A stretch of 64,000 nt of DNA from an uncultured Chloroflexia bacterium (GCA_963698765.1 CAVOSB010000029.1:142860-206859), one strand, 5' to 3'. Counted from the first letter of the stretch, positions 26,043 to 47,400 are shown. Notes: generated by a model not told the origin, from the letters alone. A program made the numbers and translations.

Positions 26043-26465
26043 ATGTACCACACTATCATCATCGTAGGAAACCTGGGTCGCGATCCTGAGATGAGATATC
26101 TCCCCAGCGGCCAGGCAGTTTGTGATTTGAGCGTCGCCACCAATCGTCAATACAACAATTCCAGCGGTCAGCAGGTCAAGGAAACCATCTGGTTCAGGGT
26201 TTCTGTCTGGGGAAAACAAGCTGAAACTACCAACCAATATCTTAAGAAAGGCAGCAAAGTCCTGGTGGAAGGTCGGTTGAATCCCGATCAAACTACTGGA
26301 GGTCCGAGAATCTGGACACGCCAGGATGGTACACCGGCTGCATCTTATGAAATTTCCGCCAACACGGTTCGTTTCCTGTCGAGCCGAGGAGAAGATCAAG
26401 GCGCATACCAATCGGATGAAGCCCTGGCTCCGCAAACCGGGGACTCCGAAGAAATCCCCTTCTAA
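26043..26465 (+). CDS. ssb: Single-stranded DNA-binding protein
   Basis: IVGNLGRDPEMRY, KGSKVLVEGRL, acidic tail EEIPF. Confidence 0.95.
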   Translation: MYHTIIIVGNLGRDPEMRYLPSGQAVCDLSVATNRQYNNSSGQQVKETIWFRVSVWGKQAETTNQYLKKGSKVLVEGRLNPDQTTGGPRIWTRQDGTPAASYEISANTVRFLSSRGEDQGAYQSDEALAPQTGDSEEIPF

Positions 26466-26482
26466 GAAATTCTATCTCAACG

Positions 26483-26517
26483 ACAAGGCAGCTGACTCAT
26501 TTCATCAGCTGCCTTGT
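26483..26517 (+). terminator. Hairpin after ssb
   Basis: 13-bp stem ACAAGGCAGCTGA/TCAGCTGCCTTGT with a weak U-tract. Confidence 0.55.
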
Positions 26518-26548
26518 TACGCATTTCATCTCCCTGGAGCAAAATTCT

Positions 26549-26908
26549 ATGACCGACTTACCACCAAAAGGTCCGGACCGCGTGGCTCCACCCATGGAGC
26601 TCCCTCCCGATCTGGAAATTGAATATGTGAATATGGTGCGTATTTCCCATTCTATCTCGGAGCTTGTTTTTGATTTCGCCCGGCTCCTGCCCGGAGAAGG
26701 AAAAGCCCATATCAGCTCTCGCATCATCATGTCGCCGCTTTCCGCTAAACTCTTTTTCCGCGCCCTGACGGACAATCTCAGCAAATATGAATCGGTTTTT
26801 GGCGCCGTAAATCTTCCCGGTGACCCCACACTGGCCGATAACCTTTTCCGCCCTTACAATTCACCAGACAAACCACCTGCAACACCTGAAGCACCTGAAG
26901 CAGAATGA
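26549..26908 (+). CDS. DUF3467-like protein
   Basis: YVNMVRISHS..ELVFDF...RIIMSP..AK.F..AL..N...YE..FG. Confidence 0.8.
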   Translation: MTDLPPKGPDRVAPPMELPPDLEIEYVNMVRISHSISELVFDFARLLPGEGKAHISSRIIMSPLSAKLFFRALTDNLSKYESVFGAVNLPGDPTLADNLFRPYNSPDKPPATPEAPEAE

Positions 26909-26917
26909 GAATCCAGT

Positions 26918-27556
26918 ATGGATAAAATTGAAGGCATTGCAGAGCGCATCCGTGCTTCTTTCGAAAAACGCACCCAGGCCCGAGACCGGGCATTAGCCCA
27001 GACCCGCACGTTAATCAGGCACTGTTCACATGCCATCCGGGCAATCCACCGCGACGAACAGGATACCGCCAGCGAAAACATCCAACAGGCCAAGGAGCTG
27101 GTCGGTTTGCTTCAATCGGAGCTCGGCCAATATGGTGATTTGTACCACGCTGGTTATACACAGGATGCCCTTAAGGAATTTGCAGAAGCCAGCATCCTGT
27201 ACTCGTTGGTCCTGTTCGACCAGTTGCCAGATCCGGAAAGCCTGAACGTCGGAGAAGCCACCTACCTGCAAGGGCTGGCAGAAGTCGCCGGCGAGCTCAG
27301 GCGCCGCTGCCTGGACAATCTACGGCACGGCGACACTCACCAGGCGGAAAAACTCCTGGATTACATGGATGAAATTTATGCCATCCTGATCACGATGGAT
27401 TACCCGGATGCGATCACGGGTGGGCTTCGCCGGTTGACGGACATCGTCAGGGGAGTTACCGAACGCACGCGCGGCGACCTGACCATCAGCCTGCGCCAGT
27501 ACCAGCTGGAGCAGCGCCTGGCAGAGCTTGAGAAGCACCTGGTGAATTCCGCCTAG
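26918..27556 (+). CDS. Translin/TRAX-family protein (archaeal C3PO-like)
   Basis: All-helical 212 aa; AIRAIHR, QDALKEFAEA, YLQGLAEVAGELRR, LRRLTDIVR. Confidence 0.82.
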   Translation: MDKIEGIAERIRASFEKRTQARDRALAQTRTLIRHCSHAIRAIHRDEQDTASENIQQAKELVGLLQSELGQYGDLYHAGYTQDALKEFAEASILYSLVLFDQLPDPESLNVGEATYLQGLAEVAGELRRRCLDNLRHGDTHQAEKLLDYMDEIYAILITMDYPDAITGGLRRLTDIVRGVTERTRGDLTISLRQYQLEQRLAELEKHLVNSA

Positions 27557-27558
27557 AA

Positions 27559-27795
27559 ATGCGCACCATCCGGGCTTCAGAAATCGGTACTTACCTGTTC
27601 TGCCAGCGCGCCTGGTGGTATCTCAAACAGGGCTCTCAATCGACAAACCTTCCAGAAATGGCCGAGGGCACCGAATTCCATTACCGGCACGGGCGAATGG
27701 TGTTTTCTCTGGGATGCCTGCGAGTGCTGGCATATTCTTTGTTGCTCATCTCCCTGGCACTCGGGGCGATCTACCTGACTCGCCGGTTTCTATAA
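27559..27795 (+). CDS. N-terminal fragment of a Cas4-like nuclease with a C-terminal TM helix
   Basis: IRASEIGTYLFCQRAWWY and MAEGTEFH match the Cas4 N-terminal motif; hydrophobic tail. Confidence 0.7.
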   Translation: MRTIRASEIGTYLFCQRAWWYLKQGSQSTNLPEMAEGTEFHYRHGRMVFSLGCLRVLAYSLLLISLALGAIYLTRRFL

Positions 27796-27841
27796 TCCCA
27801 TCCCGAGCACATGCCACAGACTCACCTGCGAGGTTCCCTGG

Positions 27842-28355
27842 TTGTTAACCCTTTCGATCGCTTTTTTCCTCATCGCAGTGGTCGTGCTGTGGATCGTGGG
27901 AAAACGTCAAAAATCGCTCGGCTTACCCGCTGGGAAGATCATCACTGCCGACACCCGCCAGTGGGTGCCGGTGCAAAAGGCTCTTTATGATCCAAACTCA
28001 GGACTCACCGGACGGCCAGATTATCTGGTCGAGCATTCCGGTAAAGTGATACCCGTAGAGGTCAAATCACAACGGGTGGAGGCTGGACCTTACGACGCTC
28101 ACATCTACCAGCTGGCTGCATACTGCCTGCTGGTAGAACGACTCTATAAGCAGCGCCCAGAATTTGGAATTCTGCATTACCAGAACCGGACGTATGAAAT
28201 CGAATTTACTTCGCAGCTGGAATCAGAATTGTTGGTTTTACTGGAAGAGATGCGGCTGATGGGAAGAAAAAAGTCGCTTGACCGGTCGCATCGAGTCCGT
28301 CAAACGCTGCCAGGGATGCGGCTTCCGCTCAACCTGTGACCAGAGACTTCTGTAA
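27842..28355 (+). CDS. Cas4-like PD-(D/E)XK nuclease with an N-terminal TM helix (3' indel near 28292)
   Basis: LTGRPDYLV, PVEVKS, QLAAY; alternative frame ends KRCQGCGFRSTCDQRLL*. Confidence 0.82.
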
Positions 28356-28370
28356 TATAATACTCGCGAC

Positions 28371-29243
28371 ATGCCAGCGGAAAAGAAATATTTCGAAAGA
28401 GTCGCCGTGATCGCTCATCCGCAGCTGGATGAAGCGGCACAAGAAGCAGCCCAGGTGGCTGCATATCTTAATTTACATGGCATTTTCTCCTCGCAGGGAT
28501 ATTTACAGGACGAAATCCTGTACACCGGGATCAAAAACAAAGAGTATGACCTGATCATCGCACTGGGTGGTGATGGGACCATGTTGAGGGCGGGCCATCT
28601 TGGAGGGCAGGCAGGCGTTCCGATCCTGGGCATAAACCTGGGTCGCTTTGGCTTTTTGACCGAGGTCAACCAGGATCAATGGCGCAAAGTGCTGCCGGAG
28701 ATCATCGCAGGCCGCTTCTGGATCGAACGGCGGATGATGCTGAGTGCTGAACACTGGCGCGCTGAGACCTTGCTTGGGAAGTGGGAAGTATTGAATGAAA
28801 TCGTAGTATCGCGCGGGCAGTTTGTGCGTCCGGTTCACCTGGCAGCCGAGGTGGATGGACGTTATCTGACCACCTATGTTGCCGATGGCTTGATAGCTGC
28901 AACTGCGACAGGGTCAACGGCCTACGCCCTGGCAGCAGGAGGGCCGATCTTGCATCCGGAGCTAAGGAACATTTTACTGGTGGCAGTCGCTCCTCATTTA
29001 TCGGTCGATCGAGCAATTGTGCTCGCCGAAGGATCGAAAGTAAGCATCCGCATTCTGACCGATCACCATGCAGTTCTATCACCTGACGGGCAATTACCGG
29101 TCAACCTGCTGGATGGTGACCGGGTTGACGCCTTCGCAGGTGAACATTCCGTACAATTCATACGCAATCAAGACCCCGGCTATTTCTACCGCAACCTCAC
29201 ACCACACATGAGCAAAAACCCCTCCACTGGAAACCATCGATGA
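28371..29243 (+). CDS. nadK: NAD kinase
   Basis: LGGDGTML, GINLGRFGFL, LNE, ADGLIAATATGSTAYALAAGGP. Confidence 0.95.
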   Translation: MPAEKKYFERVAVIAHPQLDEAAQEAAQVAAYLNLHGIFSSQGYLQDEILYTGIKNKEYDLIIALGGDGTMLRAGHLGGQAGVPILGINLGRFGFLTEVNQDQWRKVLPEIIAGRFWIERRMMLSAEHWRAETLLGKWEVLNEIVVSRGQFVRPVHLAAEVDGRYLTTYVADGLIAATATGSTAYALAAGGPILHPELRNILLVAVAPHLSVDRAIVLAEGSKVSIRILTDHHAVLSPDGQLPVNLLDGDRVDAFAGEHSVQFIRNQDPGYFYRNLTPHMSKNPSTGNHR

Positions 29244-29755
29244 CAGAAGAGATCACCACGCTTTTTTGTTATAACCATCCCACTGTTGCCACAGGCCTGC
29301 GCTGCAATAACTGCGAAAGACCGATCTGTCCGAAATGTGCAATTTTGACACCGACCGGCTACCGTTGTAAAGAGTGTATACGTTCGCACCAGAAAATCTT
29401 CGAGACCGCCGAATGGTATGATTTCCCGCTGGCATTTATCGTGGCTGCGGTTCTCTCATACCTGGGAAGCCTGATCGCGTCTCGCATTGGATTTTTTATC
29501 ATCTTCATCGCTCCAATTGCCGGGATGATTGTCGCTGAAGCCGTCCGTTTTGTAGTTCGAAAGAGACGCTCCCGTAAACTCACGATTTTATCCGGAATAG
29601 CAGCCGCGCTGGGAAGCACATTCACAATCCTCATGGTTCTCGTTTTCTATGGCGGTTTCGGATTGTTGTCTTTACGTCTTCTTTGGCAGGGGATTTATGC
29701 CTTTACGGTGACTTCTACGGTGCTCTATCGGCTGGGAGGTATCCGAATCAAGTAA
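29240..29755 (+). CDS. B-box-like zinc finger membrane protein
   Basis: CYNHP...RCNNCERPICPKC...GYRCKEC followed by about 4 TM segments. Confidence 0.75.
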   Translation: MTEEITTLFCYNHPTVATGLRCNNCERPICPKCAILTPTGYRCKECIRSHQKIFETAEWYDFPLAFIVAAVLSYLGSLIASRIGFFIIFIAPIAGMIVAEAVRFVVRKRRSRKLTILSGIAAALGSTFTILMVLVFYGGFGLLSLRLLWQGIYAFTVTSTVLYRLGGIRIK

Positions 29756-31485
29756 TGCTGGTACAGCTGCACATCGAAGATTTCGCCATTATCGACCGCC
29801 TGGACGTAGAGCTTAAATCCAGCCTGGTGACGTTCACCGGTGAGACAGGAGCGGGAAAGTCGATCATCATCGACGCAGTCGAAACGATCCTGGGGGGCAG
29901 GGCGGATGCGACCCAGGTACGCACCGACGCTCAGCGTGCCAATGTCGAAGCGCTTTTTCAAATCCCTGAATCCTTACAGCCGCACTTGCATGCCATTTTG
30001 CGGCGGGAAGAGCTGCTGGACCAACCGGATATGCTCAGTATGGGCCGAGAAATCCGCTCCAATGGACGCAGCATCGCCAGAGTAAACGGGCGGGTGGTAA
30101 ATGTAAGCCTGCTGCGGGAAATTGGGGAGCTCCTGGTTGACGTCCACGGTCAATCGGATCATCTATCTTTGCTCAAAGTCAATCAACATCTTGGACTGCT
30201 GGACCGCTTCGCCTCGACCGATCCTCAGAATCCGCTCAAGGATCTGCTGCCCAAATACCAGCTTGCGTATCACCGCCTGCAAACCGTCGACCATGAGATT
30301 CAGCGTATACACCAGGCAGAGCAGGACGCTGCCCGCCGGACCGACATGCTTCGCTATCAGATCAACGAGATCCTCTCTGCGCATCTCACCACTGGTGAGG
30401 AAGAAGAGCTGCTCGGTGAAAGGAACCGGCTCAGCAATTCCGAAGTCATCTCCTCCCTTGTGCAGTCCTCGCTGGTTGCGTTGGATGAAGGCACACCTGA
30501 ATCCCCTTCCGCCTCCGACTTGATCGGGCAGGCAGTGACAGGCCTTACCAGCCTGGCACGCTACGATCCGTCGCAAGAAGCAATGCGGGACCAATTTGGG
30601 ACGTTGTTTGAGAGCCTCAGCGATCTGATCCATACCTTGCGTTTATATCTTGAGGGCATTGAGTTTAATCCGAGGCGTCTTGACCAGGTCGAAGAACGGC
30701 TGGCATTGATCCATTCTTTGAAAAGAAAATACGGCGAGACAGACGAAGCAATCCTGGATTACGCGCAGGAGGCTCAAAATCAGCTGGAAGAGATCTCCAC
30801 TTCTGCCGATCGACTCCTGGAGCTGGAGAAGGAGAGAGAATCCCTGGTGGAGACATTGGGTGAAACCGGCTGGGCGCTTTCCCAGGCACGACATTCAGCT
30901 GCCAGGGAATTGGAACGCCTGGTCGAAACTGAGCTCCAGGAGTTGCAGATGTCGGGCGCCCGCTTTCAGGTGAGTTTTTTGCAAGTACCCGATCCCCAGG
31001 GTGTACCAATTCCTGGAGGTACTCTCATGGCGTATTATCCCCAGGGTCTTGAGAAGACCGAATTCTTGATAGCTCCTAATCCGGGTGAAGGGTTCAAACC
31101 CCTGGTAAAGATCGCCTCGGGAGGCGAAACTTCCCGGCTGATGCTGGCTCTCAAGAACGTGCTGATCCAGGCTGACCACATACCTACCCTCATCTTCGAC
31201 GAGATCGATCAGGGTATAGGCGGCAGGGTTGGCAGCGTCGTAGGTCTGAAACTCAAACACCTGGGTCAGAAGCACCAGGTGCTGTGCATCACTCATCTAC
31301 CGCAGCTCGCTGCTTTCGGTACACAGCATTTGCATGTAGAAAAACAGCTCGCAGACGGGCGCACAAGCACCAGGATCAAGGACTTGAAGGGTGAAGAACG
31401 TCTTATTGAGCTTGCCCAGATGTTGGGAAACCTGAGTCAAAGCACCCTGCAATCTGCTCGAGAATTGCTGTCTCAGGCTGAGTAA
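29755..31485 (+). CDS. recN: DNA repair protein RecN
   Basis: TGETGAGKS, VDVHGQ, IASGGETSR, IFDEID, CITHLPQ. Confidence 0.96.
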   Translation: MLVQLHIEDFAIIDRLDVELKSSLVTFTGETGAGKSIIIDAVETILGGRADATQVRTDAQRANVEALFQIPESLQPHLHAILRREELLDQPDMLSMGREIRSNGRSIARVNGRVVNVSLLREIGELLVDVHGQSDHLSLLKVNQHLGLLDRFASTDPQNPLKDLLPKYQLAYHRLQTVDHEIQRIHQAEQDAARRTDMLRYQINEILSAHLTTGEEEELLGERNRLSNSEVISSLVQSSLVALDEGTPESPSASDLIGQAVTGLTSLARYDPSQEAMRDQFGTLFESLSDLIHTLRLYLEGIEFNPRRLDQVEERLALIHSLKRKYGETDEAILDYAQEAQNQLEEISTSADRLLELEKERESLVETLGETGWALSQARHSAARELERLVETELQELQMSGARFQVSFLQVPDPQGVPIPGGTLMAYYPQGLEKTEFLIAPNPGEGFKPLVKIASGGETSRLMLALKNVLIQADHIPTLIFDEIDQGIGGRVGSVVGLKLKHLGQKHQVLCITHLPQLAAFGTQHLHVEKQLADGRTSTRIKDLKGEERLIELAQMLGNLSQSTLQSARELLSQAE

Positions 31486-41354: not shown

Positions 41355-42626
41355 ATGAGCACTCCCCAGGAGAACACCACCAAAAAAACGCGCTGGTTGT
41401 CGCGCAACGTTTGGGCAGTCAGCCTGACCAGCTTATTCATGGATATCTCCAGTGAAATGGTGTTCAACCTCCTTCCACTTTACCTTTCAAATGTCCTGGG
41501 TGTAAGAACAAATGTCATCGGTTTCATCGAAGGCCTTGCCGAAGCCACAGCCAGCTTATTGAAACTTATTTCCGGCTGGGTCTCGGATAAGATCGGGCAG
41601 CGCAAGTGGCTGGCAGTCGCCGGCTACGGGCTTTCCGCCCTGGTCAAACCCCTCTTCTATTTTGCCGACAGCTGGATGGTCGTCGCTGGAGCCCGTTGGG
41701 CAGACCGTGTCGGTAAAGGAATTCGAACGGCACCCAGGGATGCTTTGGTAGCCGATTTATCAGATGCACACAACCGCGGGTTGGCTTTTGGTTTCCATCG
41801 GGCAGCCGACACGGCGGGTGCCGTGCTGGGCCTGTTGATCGCCTGGTGGGTGGTCAGGGAATTTCAGGCAGATTCTGGAACTTTACAGCTGGACACATTT
41901 CAGGCTATAGTGCTCGTCAGCCTGGTCCCGGCAGTTTTGGCAGTAATCACCCTGGCCGTGGGAGCCAGGGATGTGCCAGTTTCTGGCAGTAAAAAATTTC
42001 CGCGCCTGGCTTTGAAATCACTGGGAAAACCCTTTTTCGCGTTCATGGTCATCGTAGGTATCTTCGAGTTAGGTAACTCTTCAGATGCCTTTCTGGTTCT
42101 GCGCGCCCAGGAACGCGGTCTGAGTATCAGCGGGATTATGTCCATGTTGGTTGCTTTCAATCTGGTGTATGCGCTGGTCTCCACCCCGGCTGGACGACTG
42201 TCGGACCGTATTGGGCGCCGGCGGTTGATTGCCGGTGGCTGGCTGATATTCGCAGGGGTGTACCTTGGATTTGGATTGGCCCGCACCGCCTGGCAAATCT
42301 GGACATTGTACGTCATCTATGGGTTGTATTACGCCCTGTCTTACGGCACTTCAAAGGCTTTGATTGCCGACCTGGTGCCAGAAGAGCTGCGTGGTACCGC
42401 TTTCGGTTCGTACAACGCGATCATTGGAATTATGGATTTCCCGGCTTCATTGATCGCTGGAATACTGTGGCAAGGCGCTGGAGCGTGGGCTGGCTTTGGC
42501 GCAATGGCGCCGTTTCTATTTTCATCAATACTGGCAGCTCTCGCTGTAGCACTGCTCACTTTTTGGCTGCCCACAGTAAGAATGCGGGTTGGGACGAATC
42601 CCGTTTCGGCCCAATCTGGAAACTAA
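41355..42626 (+). CDS. MFS transporter
   Basis: GWVSDKIGQRK, GRLSDRIGRR, about 12 TM segments. Confidence 0.92.
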   Translation: MSTPQENTTKKTRWLSRNVWAVSLTSLFMDISSEMVFNLLPLYLSNVLGVRTNVIGFIEGLAEATASLLKLISGWVSDKIGQRKWLAVAGYGLSALVKPLFYFADSWMVVAGARWADRVGKGIRTAPRDALVADLSDAHNRGLAFGFHRAADTAGAVLGLLIAWWVVREFQADSGTLQLDTFQAIVLVSLVPAVLAVITLAVGARDVPVSGSKKFPRLALKSLGKPFFAFMVIVGIFELGNSSDAFLVLRAQERGLSISGIMSMLVAFNLVYALVSTPAGRLSDRIGRRRLIAGGWLIFAGVYLGFGLARTAWQIWTLYVIYGLYYALSYGTSKALIADLVPEELRGTAFGSYNAIIGIMDFPASLIAGILWQGAGAWAGFGAMAPFLFSSILAALAVALLTFWLPTVRMRVGTNPVSAQSGN

Positions 42627-42724
42627 GGCGGCTATGCGCTGTTGAATTGCTCTGGAATTTTCTTTCCTTCATTTCATTTCTGTCTAAAACTCCATTCCTG
42701 GTTTTATGTTATAGTCGAAAGCCC

Positions 42725-44055
42725 ATGTCAATGAATATACGGGTTTTTATCCTCTTTCTTCTCATTACGCTGCTATCCAGTGCCTGTGCTCAAAACCTGG
42801 GTGGTACAGGAACTGCTGTCAGCACGATTTCAAACCCCGCGCTCGCCGAGTCTCCTACTTCAGCGATCACTGACTCTCCTTCCCCTACCATCACGCCCTC
42901 TCCATCAGCCACACTCACCGCTTCTCCCTCACCTACCAGCACACCTGCCCTGGTATCTACGTTTACACCCCCTCCCACTCTGACTCTTCCTCCTCCCCTG
43001 GCAGCCAGGAAAATCTACCCTTCCTGCCATCCGGTCGAAGTGCCTTTCGATCCCTTCTCCTTTCCGGAACCGCCTGCCTCCCCAATCCCGTTCCCCTCCC
43101 TGCGCTCTCTGGCATCTGCACGCGGGCTGTGGTTAGGCACAGCCGTCGATGGGGGTCACTTATTTGACGCTCCTTATGCCGAGTTGATACGCAGCCAATT
43201 CAACCTGCTTACCCCGGAAAACGCCATGAAATGGCAGCGATTGCAGCCGCAAAGGGGTGTCTACGATTTCCGTGAAGCGGATGCTCTGGTTGCATTTGCC
43301 GAGCAGAATGGGATGGCAGTTTACGGACATCCTTTAGTCTGGCATCTGCAGCTGCCTGACTGGGTACTGCAGGGTAAATATTCCCGCGAAAATCTGGATT
43401 TAGATTTTATGTTCGCATGTAAAAACTGTTGTCAATCATTACCGCGGCAGGATCCTGGTCTGGAACGTGGTGAATGAGGCCATGGCGAACGAAGGTTACT
43501 TATATGACAATATCTGGCTGACTTCGGATCGGTCCAGAATATATCGATATGGCCTTTCAATGGGCGCACGAAGCCGATCCACAGGCAATCCTGGCATATA
43601 ATGACCATTCTGCCGAGGGGCTTAATCCAAAATCAAACGCCATCTACTCCATGGTTAAAACCATGGTCGAAAACGGCGTCCCAATCCACGCAGTTGGCCT
43701 GCAGATGCATATCAGTCTGATCAACCCACCCTCCCACCAGGACCTCACAGCGAACATGCACAGATTGGCTAATTTGGGTTTGCAGGCTCATATCACCGAG
43801 ATGGACGTTCGCATCCAATACGGCAAAGGTACTCGGGATGAAAAGCTGGCGTTGCAGGCAGAGATTTACCGAGACATTTTATCCGTCTGCCTGGAACAAC
43901 CAAACTGCCGTTTCTTTTCCACCTGGGGTGCATCCGACCAGCATTCGTGGATTCCCGGTATCACCGGGCGTCCGGACGCGCCCTTGCTTTTTGATGAGCA
44001 GGGACAGGCCAAACCAGCCTACAAGGCTCTCATCGAACTCCTGAGCCAGCCGTGA
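42725..44055 (+). CDS. GH10 endo-1,4-beta-xylanase lipoprotein (indels at 43390-43530)
   Basis: Lipobox SSAC, S/P/T linker, TPENAMKW, GHPLVW, WNVVNE (alternative frame), YND, GLQMH, ITEMD. Confidence 0.88.
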
Positions 44056-44463: not shown

Positions 44464-47400
44464 ATGTTACCGATATCCAATACTGCTAACAAGACTGCCA
44501 ATAATTCTATTCAGTCACACCCTGCCGCCGCCATGGTGATCGGCGGGGGTATCGGGGGTATGCGTGCCGCTTTGGACCTCGCCGACGCGGGATTAAAAGT
44601 CTACCTGATCGAACACACTCCCTGCCTGGGTGGGCGAGTCGCCCAGCTGGGCTTTATGTTTCCCCAACACGACTGCGTGCTGTGCCGTGGAACGTCAGAT
44701 CATGGCTACGGTTGTACCCGGCCTTCGATCTCCCCCGTTTACATCCAGCATAATCAGCATCCCAATATTGAGATTTTGACTCAAACTCACCTGATTGGCG
44801 TGGAAGGACAGGCTGGAGATTTTTCGGTATCACTCCGGCAGGAACCGCGTTATGTGGATGCCTACCAATGCATCAACTGCGGCTACTGCAGCCAGGTTTG
44901 CCCGGTCGAGCTGCCCGATAAATACCAGCAAGGCATTACCTCTCGCAAAGCAGCTTACAAAGTCTCCGCTCGGGCTGTACCCGATGCTTACGTGATCGAC
45001 CGCGGCCCGTACTGTGAGAATTGCGGCAAGTGTGTCGAGGTATGCCCGACGCACGCCATCGATTTAAGCGCTCAACCGCGGCTTTTGACAGTGGAAGTTG
45101 GGGCCATCATCCTGGCTCTGGGATTTCAGATTTATGATCCGAGCCAGCTCGGTGAGCTTGGTTTTGGACGCTACCCCAATGTGGTCAGCGCCATGCAGTA
45201 TGAGCGCCTGGCAAGCCGCTCTGGTCCAACAGAAGGTATTGTGCTCAGGCCATCCGACAGGCAGAAACCGCGCTCGATCGCCTGGCTGCAGTGTATCGGT
45301 TCGCGTGATCAGGAAAACGCCTACTGCTCCTCGATCTGCTGTATGTATGGGACGAAAGAAGCTATCCTTGCGAAACAACGCCTGGGTAAAGATGTGGAAT
45401 GCCGCGTTTTTATGATGGATGAGAGGGCGTTCAATAAAGAATACAGCACCTATTTTGCCCGGGCACGCGAGAAGCATAATATCCGCTATAACCGCTGCCG
45501 GGTCTCATCCATCCGAGAAGACTCTGCACAGCCGCAACCTGATCCTGCACTATCAGGATGAGGCTGGCAATCCGGTTGAAGAAAGCTTCGATATGGTGGT
45601 CCTGGCTATCGGGGTGCGGCCTCCTGAAACTGCCGGCGAGCTCGCTAAAATGCTGGGGATACAGCTCAACGAATATGGCTTTTGCAACACCGAAAAATTC
45701 TCGCCGCTTCAGACTACCCGCCCGGGAGTATTTGTTTGCGGTGCTTTCTCCTCGCCAAAAGAAATAGTCGAAACGATCATCGACGCCAGCGGCGCTGCCG
45801 CCGAGGTCATGCGCCTCCTGAATGATCGCCTGAATACCTATCCATATACTCGGGAGTATCCGTTCCAGACCAAAGGTGCTTTGCCCGCCGAGCGAAATGT
45901 GTCGGATGAATCAGCGTGGGTGGGTGTTTTTGTTTGCACCTGCAGCGGGACACTCACGAACGACAATGCCCATCAGCCAGGCATCCTGGATGTCCATGAA
46001 ATACTCCACCTGGCGGCTGAGACCCCCGGAGTGACGCACACCCGCATCCTCGAGACAGCCTGCTTCCAGGAAGATCTCGCTACAATCCAGCGTGACATCC
46101 GCGAACAGGATCTGAACCGGGTTGTCATCGCAGCCTGCAGCAACCGCACGCATGATTCGCTCTTTCAACGCACCATCCGGCAGGCTGGGCTGAATCCTTA
46201 CCTGGTTGAGCTGGTAAACCTGCGTGAGCAGTGCAGTCGTGTTCACTACTGGCAGCGCGAGCTCGCCAATCGCAAAGCCCAGGAGTTAGTGCGCGTTGCC
46301 ATCGGGCGAGCTGGAGCTTCTCAGCCAGTCTATAAGAAGAAATTCCGCTGCTACCCGGCCGCCCTGGTGATAGGCGGAGGGGTATCGGGCATGACTGCCG
46401 CCCTGGCCATCGCCGATTCCGGCTATGAAGTTCACCTGGTTGAACGCACCGAGATGCTGGGCGGCAACCTCTCGAAACTGCATTATGTGGCAGAAGGTTA
46501 CAACCCGCAAATCTTGCTCCGTGATCTTGTAAACCGGGTGCGTGCTCACCAGCGGGTCATTGTACATACGCGCTCGGATGTCCTGCGTCATACAGGGCAT
46601 GTCGGTCGTTTTCGCACAGAGCTTATCACTCGCAATATGGATGGCTCTACTTCACGAACGCAGTTCGAACATGGCGTGACGATTGTAGCCACTGGAGGTC
46701 GGGAAGCACACGAGCACCCCTGGCTTTCTCTACCCCAGGTGATCACGCAGCACGAGCTGGAAGAGACGTATCATTCACCAGCCTGAACAGATCATCGGGC
46801 TGAAAAATGTCGTCATGATCCAGTGTGTGCGTCCTGAAGGTGTGCCGGATTACTGCTCGCGGGTGTGTTGCACGAACACCATGAAAAACGCCATCCGCAT
46901 CAAGCTCTTCAATCCGAAGTGCACTGTCACCGTGCTGTACCGCAATATCGTGACCTACGGTTTCCGCGAAGAGTATTACACCGAAGCCAGGCGCCGCGGC
47001 ATCATCTTTGCCCGATACACCGATGAAAACCCACCCACGCTTTCACTCAAGCCCGACAGCAAAGGTGTGGATGTCCTGGTCAGGGATCTCAGCCTGAACC
47101 GCGACATCAGCCTGCAGGCGGACCTGGTCACTTTAAGCATGAGCATCCTCCCAGCTGAAGGCAGTCAGGAGACCGCAGACATGCTGCGTCTGCCGCTCTC
47201 CAGCGAAGGTTTCTTCGCTGAGGCACAGCTGAAATTACGCCCGATGGACTTCATGCGTGAAGGCATCTTCCTGGCAGGCATGGCGCACTACCCCAAGTTC
47301 CTGGAGGAGAGTATCAGCCAGGCGTTAGCAGCAGCCTCCAGAGCGCTGACACTGTTGTCCTCACAGGAAGCTCTTTACCTGGGAGGGGTTGTCGCCCAGG

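Follow-up and report, generated by a model that had tools for sequence, protein, structure and literature searches.

To our knowledge, Cas4-family nucleases have been treated as soluble single-chain enzymes. Hudaiberdiev et al. (2017) reported a monophyletic group of solo-Cas4 proteins in many Chloroflexi (PMC5704561); the words "transmembrane" and "split" occur nowhere in the text of that article, whose supplements with trees may show such proteins. According to a paper on M. mazei Solo-Cas4, in which the word "membrane" is absent, His62, Asp99, and Glu113 coordinate the catalytic Mn2+ of the solved Sso0001 together with a backbone carbonyl, and cysteine mutants of the M. mazei protein lose the cluster and keep nuclease activity (PMC12501428). 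The same paper describes "iron-staple" domains of the AddB/Dna2 type, whose C-terminal end is tied to an N-terminal segment by a 4Fe-4S cluster (PMC12501428). Full-text searches of the literature turned up no Cas4 described as split or as bound to a membrane, and a two-gene, membrane-anchored Cas4 layout, present in many bacteria and archaea, is apparently undescribed.

The window (the whole stretch of 64,000 nucleotides analyzed, from an uncultured Chloroflexia bacterium) carries two neighboring open reading frames (ORFs), which we call the N-half and the C-half. We consider it quite likely that they encode a two-subunit, membrane-anchored nuclease of the Cas4 family (RecB-like PD-(D/E)xK, iron-sulfur), a solo-Cas4 whose halves assemble into one Cas4 fold, and that the insertions seen in the window copy are assembly errors. 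The parts of the locus are as follows.

27559..27795, + strand: N-half gene, an ORF of 78 aa with the first Cas4 Cys, GxxxH, and a C-terminal membrane helix
27601-27603, + strand: N-half Cys15 (YLFCQRAWW), in the predicted cytoplasmic part
27667-27681, + strand: N-half G37xxxH41 (G37-TEF-H41), in the predicted cytoplasmic part
27715-27777, + strand: predicted membrane helix 1, about residues 53-73 of the N-half, with a short outer tail after the helix
27796..27841, + strand: spacer between the halves, holding ATG 27811 and a private extra base at 27825-27828
27842..28339, + strand: C-half gene as read in the window, 165 aa, TTG start
27842-27898, + strand: membrane helix 2 by hydropathy, C-half residues 1-19
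28019-28021, + strand: C-half D60 (in GRPDYLV), catalytic residue by motif
28058-28066, + strand: C-half E73-x-K75 (in PVEVKS), catalytic residues by motif
28109-28123, + strand: C-half Q90xxxY94 (QLAAY), catalytic residues by motif
28292, + strand: private extra base (+1 shift), which cuts the Cys triad off the C-half frame
28293..28355, + strand, +1 frame: true C-half C-terminal coding stretch, encoding KRCQGCGFRSTCDQRLL*
28308-28310, 28317-28319, and 28335-28337, + strand, +1 frame: Cys triad codons of CxxCxxxxxC
28353-28355, + strand, +1 frame: stop of the true C-half frame

As the first-pass annotation had claimed, the first cluster cysteine and the GxxxH motif lie on a 78-aa protein that ends in a hydrophobic helix (ORF 27559..27795; Kyte-Doolittle 19-residue mean of 2.10 at residue 53), and the PD-ExK-QxxxY core lies on a second protein that begins with one (ORF 27842..28339; 2.95 at residue 1 on the same scale). 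The N-half ORF translates as MRTIRASEIGTYLFCQRAWWY...GTEFHYRHGR, with the hydrophobic stretch next. ORF analysis also upheld the claim that the second frame is open from 27779, directly past TGA 27776-27778. GAGG stands 9 nt upstream of TTG 27842, and ATG 27811, the start in near-identical strains, is out of frame in the window through the extra base at 27825-27828. At the other end, the last 15 C-half residues as read (from 28292) are out of frame; the stretch ending in the Cys triad and stop is encoded one frame over from the C-half ORF, and there is therefore one extra base near 28292.

The NCBIfam cas4 model TIGR00372 matched the N-half over model positions 2-50 (E 2.9e-5, 24 bits) and the window C-half over model positions 61-153 (E 2e-14, 53.9 bits); its cut-off is 65 bits, a value exceeded by the intact P0001 (70.2 bits), which is 99% identical. 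Pfam PF12705 and PF01930 matched the C-half and no Pfam family matched the N-half, which was matched by the PADLOC Cas4 model (E 7.8e-6); within PADLOC, only Cas4/DruK-type nuclease models matched and no defense-system partner was found. A profile of both halves (A5) aligned colinearly with chain I of the solved Cas4 8d3l over two stretches of that chain, residues 11-59 and residues 102-202 (E 1.4e-12), and also matched 4r5q, 4ic1, and 7mi4 (the last with E 5.8e-6). On 8d3l_I the N-half profile alone was weak (E 0.19), the N-half having an i-E of 0.011 inside the joint profile. At the level of sequence comparison, the colinear matching of both ORFs by TIGR00372, together with the Pfam and profile matches, is beyond chance.

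The residues expected of a Cas4 nuclease are distributed over both proteins. S7, C15, R17, G25, G37, and H41 are invariant across 21 N-halves, as are D47, D70, E83, K85, H97, Q100, Y104, R158, H160, C166, C169, and C175 (P0001 numbering) across 21 C-halves. Adding 15 single-chain forms introduces no variation at the C, the H, the D, ExK, QxxxY, or the Cys triad, and the D, E-x-K, and Q-h-x-x-Y motifs are invariant in 22 split plus fused sequences. The 1+3 cysteine feature of Cas4 is complete only across both gene products, with C15 in the N-half and C166/C169/C175 in intact C-halves, and in place of the Cas4 trait of one soluble polypeptide of ~160-220 aa there are two ORFs with one hydrophobic helix each. 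Since His62 is a metal ligand in Sso0001, the N-half would, judging from the alignment, contribute a ligand to the cluster as well as one to the active site. In source annotations the C-half goes by the name "CRISPR-associated protein Cas4," and most N-halves are listed as "hypothetical protein"; we regard both names as misleading.

Hydropathy supports helix 1 at residues 50-62 in 19/20 N-halves (it is weak in L022) and helix 2 at residues 1-4 in 20/20 C-halves. Over 21 pairs, the mean number of K+R was 2.43 before helix 1 and 0.52 in the tail of 0-8 residues that follows it, and 0.0 before helix 2 and 3.33 past it. These counts are consistent with a topology that obeys the positive-inside rule, in which both soluble parts would face the cytoplasm and the break between the genes would fall in an outer loop. 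A minority of relatives are single chains with two, four, or more helices between the halves, which likewise places the break in the outer loop of a membrane hairpin.

The two frame-disrupting bases of the window copy are private to it. Base 28292 is missing from the contigs of runs X1, X3, and X7 (3/3 covering runs, near-identical strains), and P0001 is intact, so the earlier proposal that correcting one indel restores CxxCxxxxxC was borne out. A base is also missing at 27825 in X1 (CAC-TGGGAGG) and at 27828 in X3 (CACCT-CGAGG), where the window reads CACCTGCGAGG; the X7 contigs break there. P0001, the nearest protein (180 aa), starts MPQTHWEVPWLL, corresponding to ATG 27811, and ends ...LDRSHESVKRCQGCGFRSTCDQRLL. 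The comparison contigs come from three runs on other samples, the maximum share of sampled words in any run being 0.81; 0 reads were placed from raw-read run X23, and RNA run X20 contained 0.08 of the sampled words. At least three further +1 shifts were found in the window. Errors are not pervasive there, ORFs of at least 80 aa spanning a normal 86% of its length. The further shifts lie in two genes.

42467-44055, + strand: glycoside hydrolase family 10 (GH10) gene broken by +1 shifts near 43410 and 43510, the frame passing from 2 to 0 and then to 1
44464-46786, + strand: HdrA-like FAD/4Fe-4S oxidoreductase, read as overlapping ORFs of 365 and 455 aa because of a +1 shift near 45520

In the GH10 gene, positions 1-102 and 154-310 of PF00331 are matched on separate ORFs (Pfam). 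All five frame breaks are of the extra-base kind, which points to an insertion artifact, and given the +1 shifts in two other genes of the window and the absence of the private bases from contigs of other runs, it is quite likely that both private insertions (~27825-27828 and 28292) are assembly errors; that the one at 27825-27828 arose as a merge of two strain variants is speculation. The shift at the 3' end (28292) removes the Cys triad, and the shift at the 5' end (27825-27828) may be harmless, because most relatives start the C-half at the position of TTG 27842 (an ATG 26 codons before GLPxG in 14/20). Other assemblies likewise have C-halves whose frame is broken or whose Cys triad is gone, at L093 (3180-3878) and L097 (3334-3787) and in P0252; broken copies therefore recur, by error or by decay.

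The layout of two membrane-anchored halves, which the first-pass annotation had put forward together with the question of whether homologues are two genes, recurs among relatives: they are mostly separate ORFs, in 20/21 relatives' loci and in 74/80 loci of named genomes, with selection on both halves. The N-half is present in 34/41 genomes of the window's family or order, and the pair, which is not universal, was not detected in the other 7/41, four of which are 95-99% complete. At 21 loci examined closely (L002-L012 and L015-L024), the halves are separate adjacent ORFs in 20, each of these with an intact CxxCxxxxxC in the C-half; at L024, no C-half was found within ~1.5 kb of the N-half. In the 20 split loci, the gaps between the halves run from -13 to +46 nt (-70 to +78 nt counting all split loci), the halves share a frame in 7 and are in other frames in 13, the N-half stop is TAA in 8, TGA in 11, and TAG in 1, and an ATG stands 25-30 codons ahead of GLPxG in all 20. 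A search for relatives of N-half length (42-137 aa) gave 494 proteins at E <= 0.001 out of 496 candidates; exactly 78 aa was the length of 110 of the 120 N-half relatives listed, and the best 120 C-half relatives measured 105-184 aa.

Among sampled Chloroflexota genomes, the N-half profile matched 46/201 (this tally and that of 67/201 include the unpublished genome G077, with weak matches only, on which no other result depends), and a C-half with a membrane helix was present in 41/41 genomes having an N-half at E < 1e-9. The halves were on one contig in 40 of these 41 and on different contigs in G159 (C17 vs C61). Unrelated genes separate the halves at two loci, a 210-aa gene at L028 (837-1469) and a 313-aa ORF, L,D-transpeptidase-like by eye, at L039 (1036-1977); C-halves with no detectable nearby N-half were found at L089 and L116, in G042, and in several genomes of family f40. 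Over 15 pairs of related loci, Nei-Gojobori dN/dS ranged from 0.08 to 0.42 in the N-half and from 0.09 to 0.26 in the C-half, and the 78-aa ORF is therefore a constrained protein-coding gene. The two-ORF layout in both sets of loci argues that the split is conserved and is not damage; comparison of these relatives supports a conserved layout under selection.

A profile of both halves (A4) searched against 1.84 billion representatives gave 3543 matches at E <= 0.001, 332 of them at E <= 1e-30. The best 150 were mostly C-halves of 163-191 aa, together with ~17 single chains of 243-301 aa with two helices between the halves and ~18 proteins of 320-574 aa with four to ~10 helices there. Repeated hairpins, with 4 to ~10 helices between the Cas4 parts, were observed in P0321 and P0331 (557-574 aa) and in P0323 and P0328 (322-357 aa). 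The cluster of the single-chain P0284 contains Methermicoccus shengliensis WP_052353351.1 (P0392), a 266-aa protein annotated "Cas4." A scan of one genome per species, built from 5 fused sequences, gave 531 relatives with H[IV][LM]QLA[AS]YC, the best 80 of which came from Methanothrix/Methanotrichaceae, Thermoplasmatota, Methanofollis, a Dehalococcoidales MAG, a Syntrophobacterales MAG, and Anaerolineae. By eye, 74 of these best 80 loci were split; of the four fused loci, three have helices (L041, L042, and L043) and one has none (L050), and in the last 2 (L089 and L116) a different gene stands immediately upstream. L050 (2992-3615), a Thermoplasmata locus that falls inside the membrane-type clade, codes for a single chain of 207 aa that lacks membrane helices and has apparently lost the insert. 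The alternative raised in the first-pass annotation, a single protein with an internal membrane hairpin, thus exists in nature, in other lineages such as Methermicoccus, Methanofollis, and the Dehalococcoidales MAG; none was seen in the window's own family or order. Open frames that might be taken for fusions in G033 (281 aa), G195, and G094 were rejected as upstream extensions only.

In 27 loci of the Methanothrix type, the C-half begins with an ATG placed 16 nt ahead of where the N-half stop ends, and in the family of Methanothrix genome G239 only 19/51 genomes showed a C-half that includes the membrane helix, 18/19 of which have an adjoining N-half in another frame. On a FastTree phylogeny of the C-domain (135 rows), clades follow taxa and split and fused forms are interspersed, with at least 8 changes by parsimony, at least 2 of which are forced by well-supported branches; fused representatives of the A4 search were added to this tree and split ones left out, so its proportions of split and fused forms are not a sample. 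Because split and single-chain forms swap within one clade, it is very likely that the halves work as one enzyme. A search with the N-half only among proteins of 138-2000 aa found no fused forms; this blank reflects limited sensitivity, since the later A4 profile search found them.

The pair lies in a run of eight co-directional genes (26043-31485), the other members of which are as follows.

26043-26465, + strand: SSB (Pfam)
26549-26908, + strand: DUF3467 (Pfam)
26918-27556, + strand: translin-like gene (Pfam), ending 2 nt before the N-half ATG
28371-29243, + strand: NAD kinase (Pfam)
29240-29755, + strand: small B-box-like membrane protein, 171 aa, with a Cys-rich N-terminus and a match under the Pfam cut-off
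29683-31485, + strand: RecN (Pfam), whose listed TTG start overlaps the B-box-like gene by 73 nt

Because of this 73-nt overlap, the RecN start is likely downstream of the listed TTG. The order SSB-DUF3467-translin-N-C-NadK-Bbox-RecN is the same in 6/8 fetched genomes (G011, G017, G020, G006, G021, and G037); G082 keeps N-C-NadK-Bbox-RecN and G075 the N-C pair only, so that the downstream NadK-Bbox-RecN order is kept in 7/8. The translin-like gene is upstream of the pair in 21/21 loci L002-L024. Within this cluster, SSB keeps company with DUF3467 and with a translin-like protein of bacterial origin. Archaeal loci adjoin Trm5, or aRF1-like and ABCE1 genes, which are unrelated housekeeping genes; with the archaeal loci elsewhere and the cluster within one bacterial order, the link to repair is a lead in that order only. 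At L065 (1003-5265), from a Syntrophobacterales MAG, the pair is flanked by a HerA-like (DUF87) ATPase and a Cdc6/Orc-like AAA protein, unlike the other contexts. Cas1 (PF01867) was not found in the window's genome (74.7% complete), cas families were absent among 55 neighboring ORFs of 13 loci, and the window itself contained no match to Rfam families, CRISPR repeat families included, and no tRNA in a tRNA scan. The setting is that of solo-Cas4 genes, the context being non-CRISPR and non-mobile, the synteny conserved, and the clades following taxa.

Several other readings of the locus were weighed against the two-subunit nuclease. It is possible, if unlikely, that the window C-half is a genuine pseudogene, with two real insertions, the Cys triad lost, the upstream ATG shifted, and the system decaying in this strain: both insertions and the sole substitution relative to all three strains (27995, N for D) fall in the C-half gene, the flanks (27300-27803 and 28186-28600) have no listed difference, no run exceeds 0.81 of sampled words, and broken C-halves occur in two other MAGs (L093 and L097). 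However, the frame is intact in 3/3 covering runs of near-identical strains, the three or more additional +1 shifts in the unrelated GH10 and HdrA-like genes indicate a systematic insertion artifact, and the N-half and the remaining C-half are otherwise intact. We find it improbable that the C-half is a self-sufficient, membrane-anchored PD-(D/E)xK nuclease and the 78-aa ORF a remnant or a gene with an unrelated role. Such a reading could draw on the presence of D, ExK, and QxxxY all on the C-half, on genomes with a C-half in which an N-half was not detected, and on the activity that cluster-free M. mazei Solo-Cas4 mutants retain (PMC12501428), but it sits poorly with purifying selection as strong on the N-half as on the C-half, with a Cys15 and His41 that are invariant across phyla, with an N-half length of 78 aa in 110 of 120 relatives listed, and with the co-occurrence of the halves in 41/41 genomes; in the solved Sso0001, moreover, it is the upstream His62 that binds the catalytic metal (PMC12501428).

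That readthrough of the stop codon or programmed frameshifting joins both ORFs in one polypeptide, a single chain with an internal hairpin, appears very improbable. All three stops are used, frames and gaps vary (-70 to +78 nt), and the ATG 25-30 codons before GLPxG is conserved in 20/20 loci, even though 7/20 relatives' loci have the halves in one frame with a single stop between them; nor does the natural occurrence of single-chain forms, or an archaeal C frame that is always -1, account for the whole genes between the halves at L028 and L039 and the separate contigs of G159, and a conserved slippery site was not found by eye. An ordinary adaptation Cas4, trimming prespacers for Cas1-Cas2, is the reading we give least credence, as a bare outside chance. 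We know of no membrane anchoring among adaptation Cas4 proteins. The source annotation of the C-half as "CRISPR-associated protein Cas4" and the score of intact P0001 above the TIGR00372 cut-off (70.2 vs 65 bits) would fit this function, but the genome, at 74.7% completeness, yielded no Cas1, the 55 ORFs around 13 loci yielded no cas family, and the context is one of conserved housekeeping and repair genes.

We therefore return to the two-subunit nuclease as the preferred reading. Subunit N (78 aa) would give the first cluster Cys and the His of GxxxH and cross the membrane once outward, and subunit C (170-180 aa in intact relatives) would cross it once inward and give D, ExK, QxxxY, and CxxCxxxxxC, the gene break corresponding to the short outer loop of the two-helix hairpin found in single-chain relatives. 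At the cytoplasmic side, the soluble parts of N and C would come together as a single Cas4 fold that has a composite active site and a cluster site of 1+3 cysteines; assembly at the inner membrane face would proceed via helix pairing, the 1+3 cysteine cluster site, and the composite metal site, and the resulting two-subunit nuclease would act on DNA near the membrane. The comparisons demonstrate the gene layout and its conservation, selection on both halves, conserved residues, and a topology that fits the positive-inside rule; physical assembly, a shared Fe-S cluster in trans, nuclease activity, and the cellular role are what we infer from them. Because M. mazei Cys mutants are active, the shared cluster need not be essential for catalysis and may, by analogy, be structural, not catalytic. 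Judging by the gene cluster that the window's family shares (SSB-DUF3467-translin-N-C-NadK-Bbox-RecN), the enzyme probably processes DNA near the membrane in connection with repair or recombination. A further idea, which we hold to be rather unlikely, is that the split itself is functional, the N-half ligands making the nuclease conditional on membrane co-assembly, stoichiometry, and iron-sulfur/redox supply, and hence switchable at the inner membrane face; if so, DNA ends would be processed at the membrane, e.g., incoming or broken DNA passed to SSB and RecN, and the repeated switching of layout, split or fused, together with the growth to 4-10 helices in relatives, would represent tuning of a membrane module.

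A large, vertically inherited branch of Cas4 (Chloroflexota, the family of a Methanothrix genome, and Thermoplasmatota) is membrane-embedded and mostly made as two gene products. If the halves assemble, they would form a natural split iron-sulfur nuclease with a cluster and an active site that span two proteins, the poorly understood solo-Cas4 would gain a place of action at the inner membrane face, and Anaerolineales would offer a testable link to SSB and RecN.

Compared with known systems, the window pair shares D, ExK, QxxxY, and the 1+3 cysteines with solo-Cas4 (PMC5704561; M. mazei, PMC12501428; Sso0001, PDB 4IC1), and like them it lies outside cas loci and its inheritance looks vertical; it differs in that the domain of the window type is interrupted by membrane helices and mostly encoded by two genes. 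The best solved sequence matches are the type I-C Cas4 (PDB 8D3L chain I; E 1.4e-12) and the Cas4-Cas1 fusion (7MI4; E 5.8e-6), which, unlike the window pair, are soluble single chains or Cas1-fused and work with Cas1-Cas2. Methermicoccus shengliensis WP_052353351.1 shares its clade, its invariant residues, and the site of its membrane insert with the window pair, but is a single gene, whereas the window lineage is broken in the loop between the two helices. Finally, the pair resembles the AddB/Dna2 "iron-staple" domains as a RecB-like nuclease with a cluster joining N-terminal and C-terminal parts; those are domains of large soluble helicase-nucleases, whereas the staple here would join two membrane proteins.
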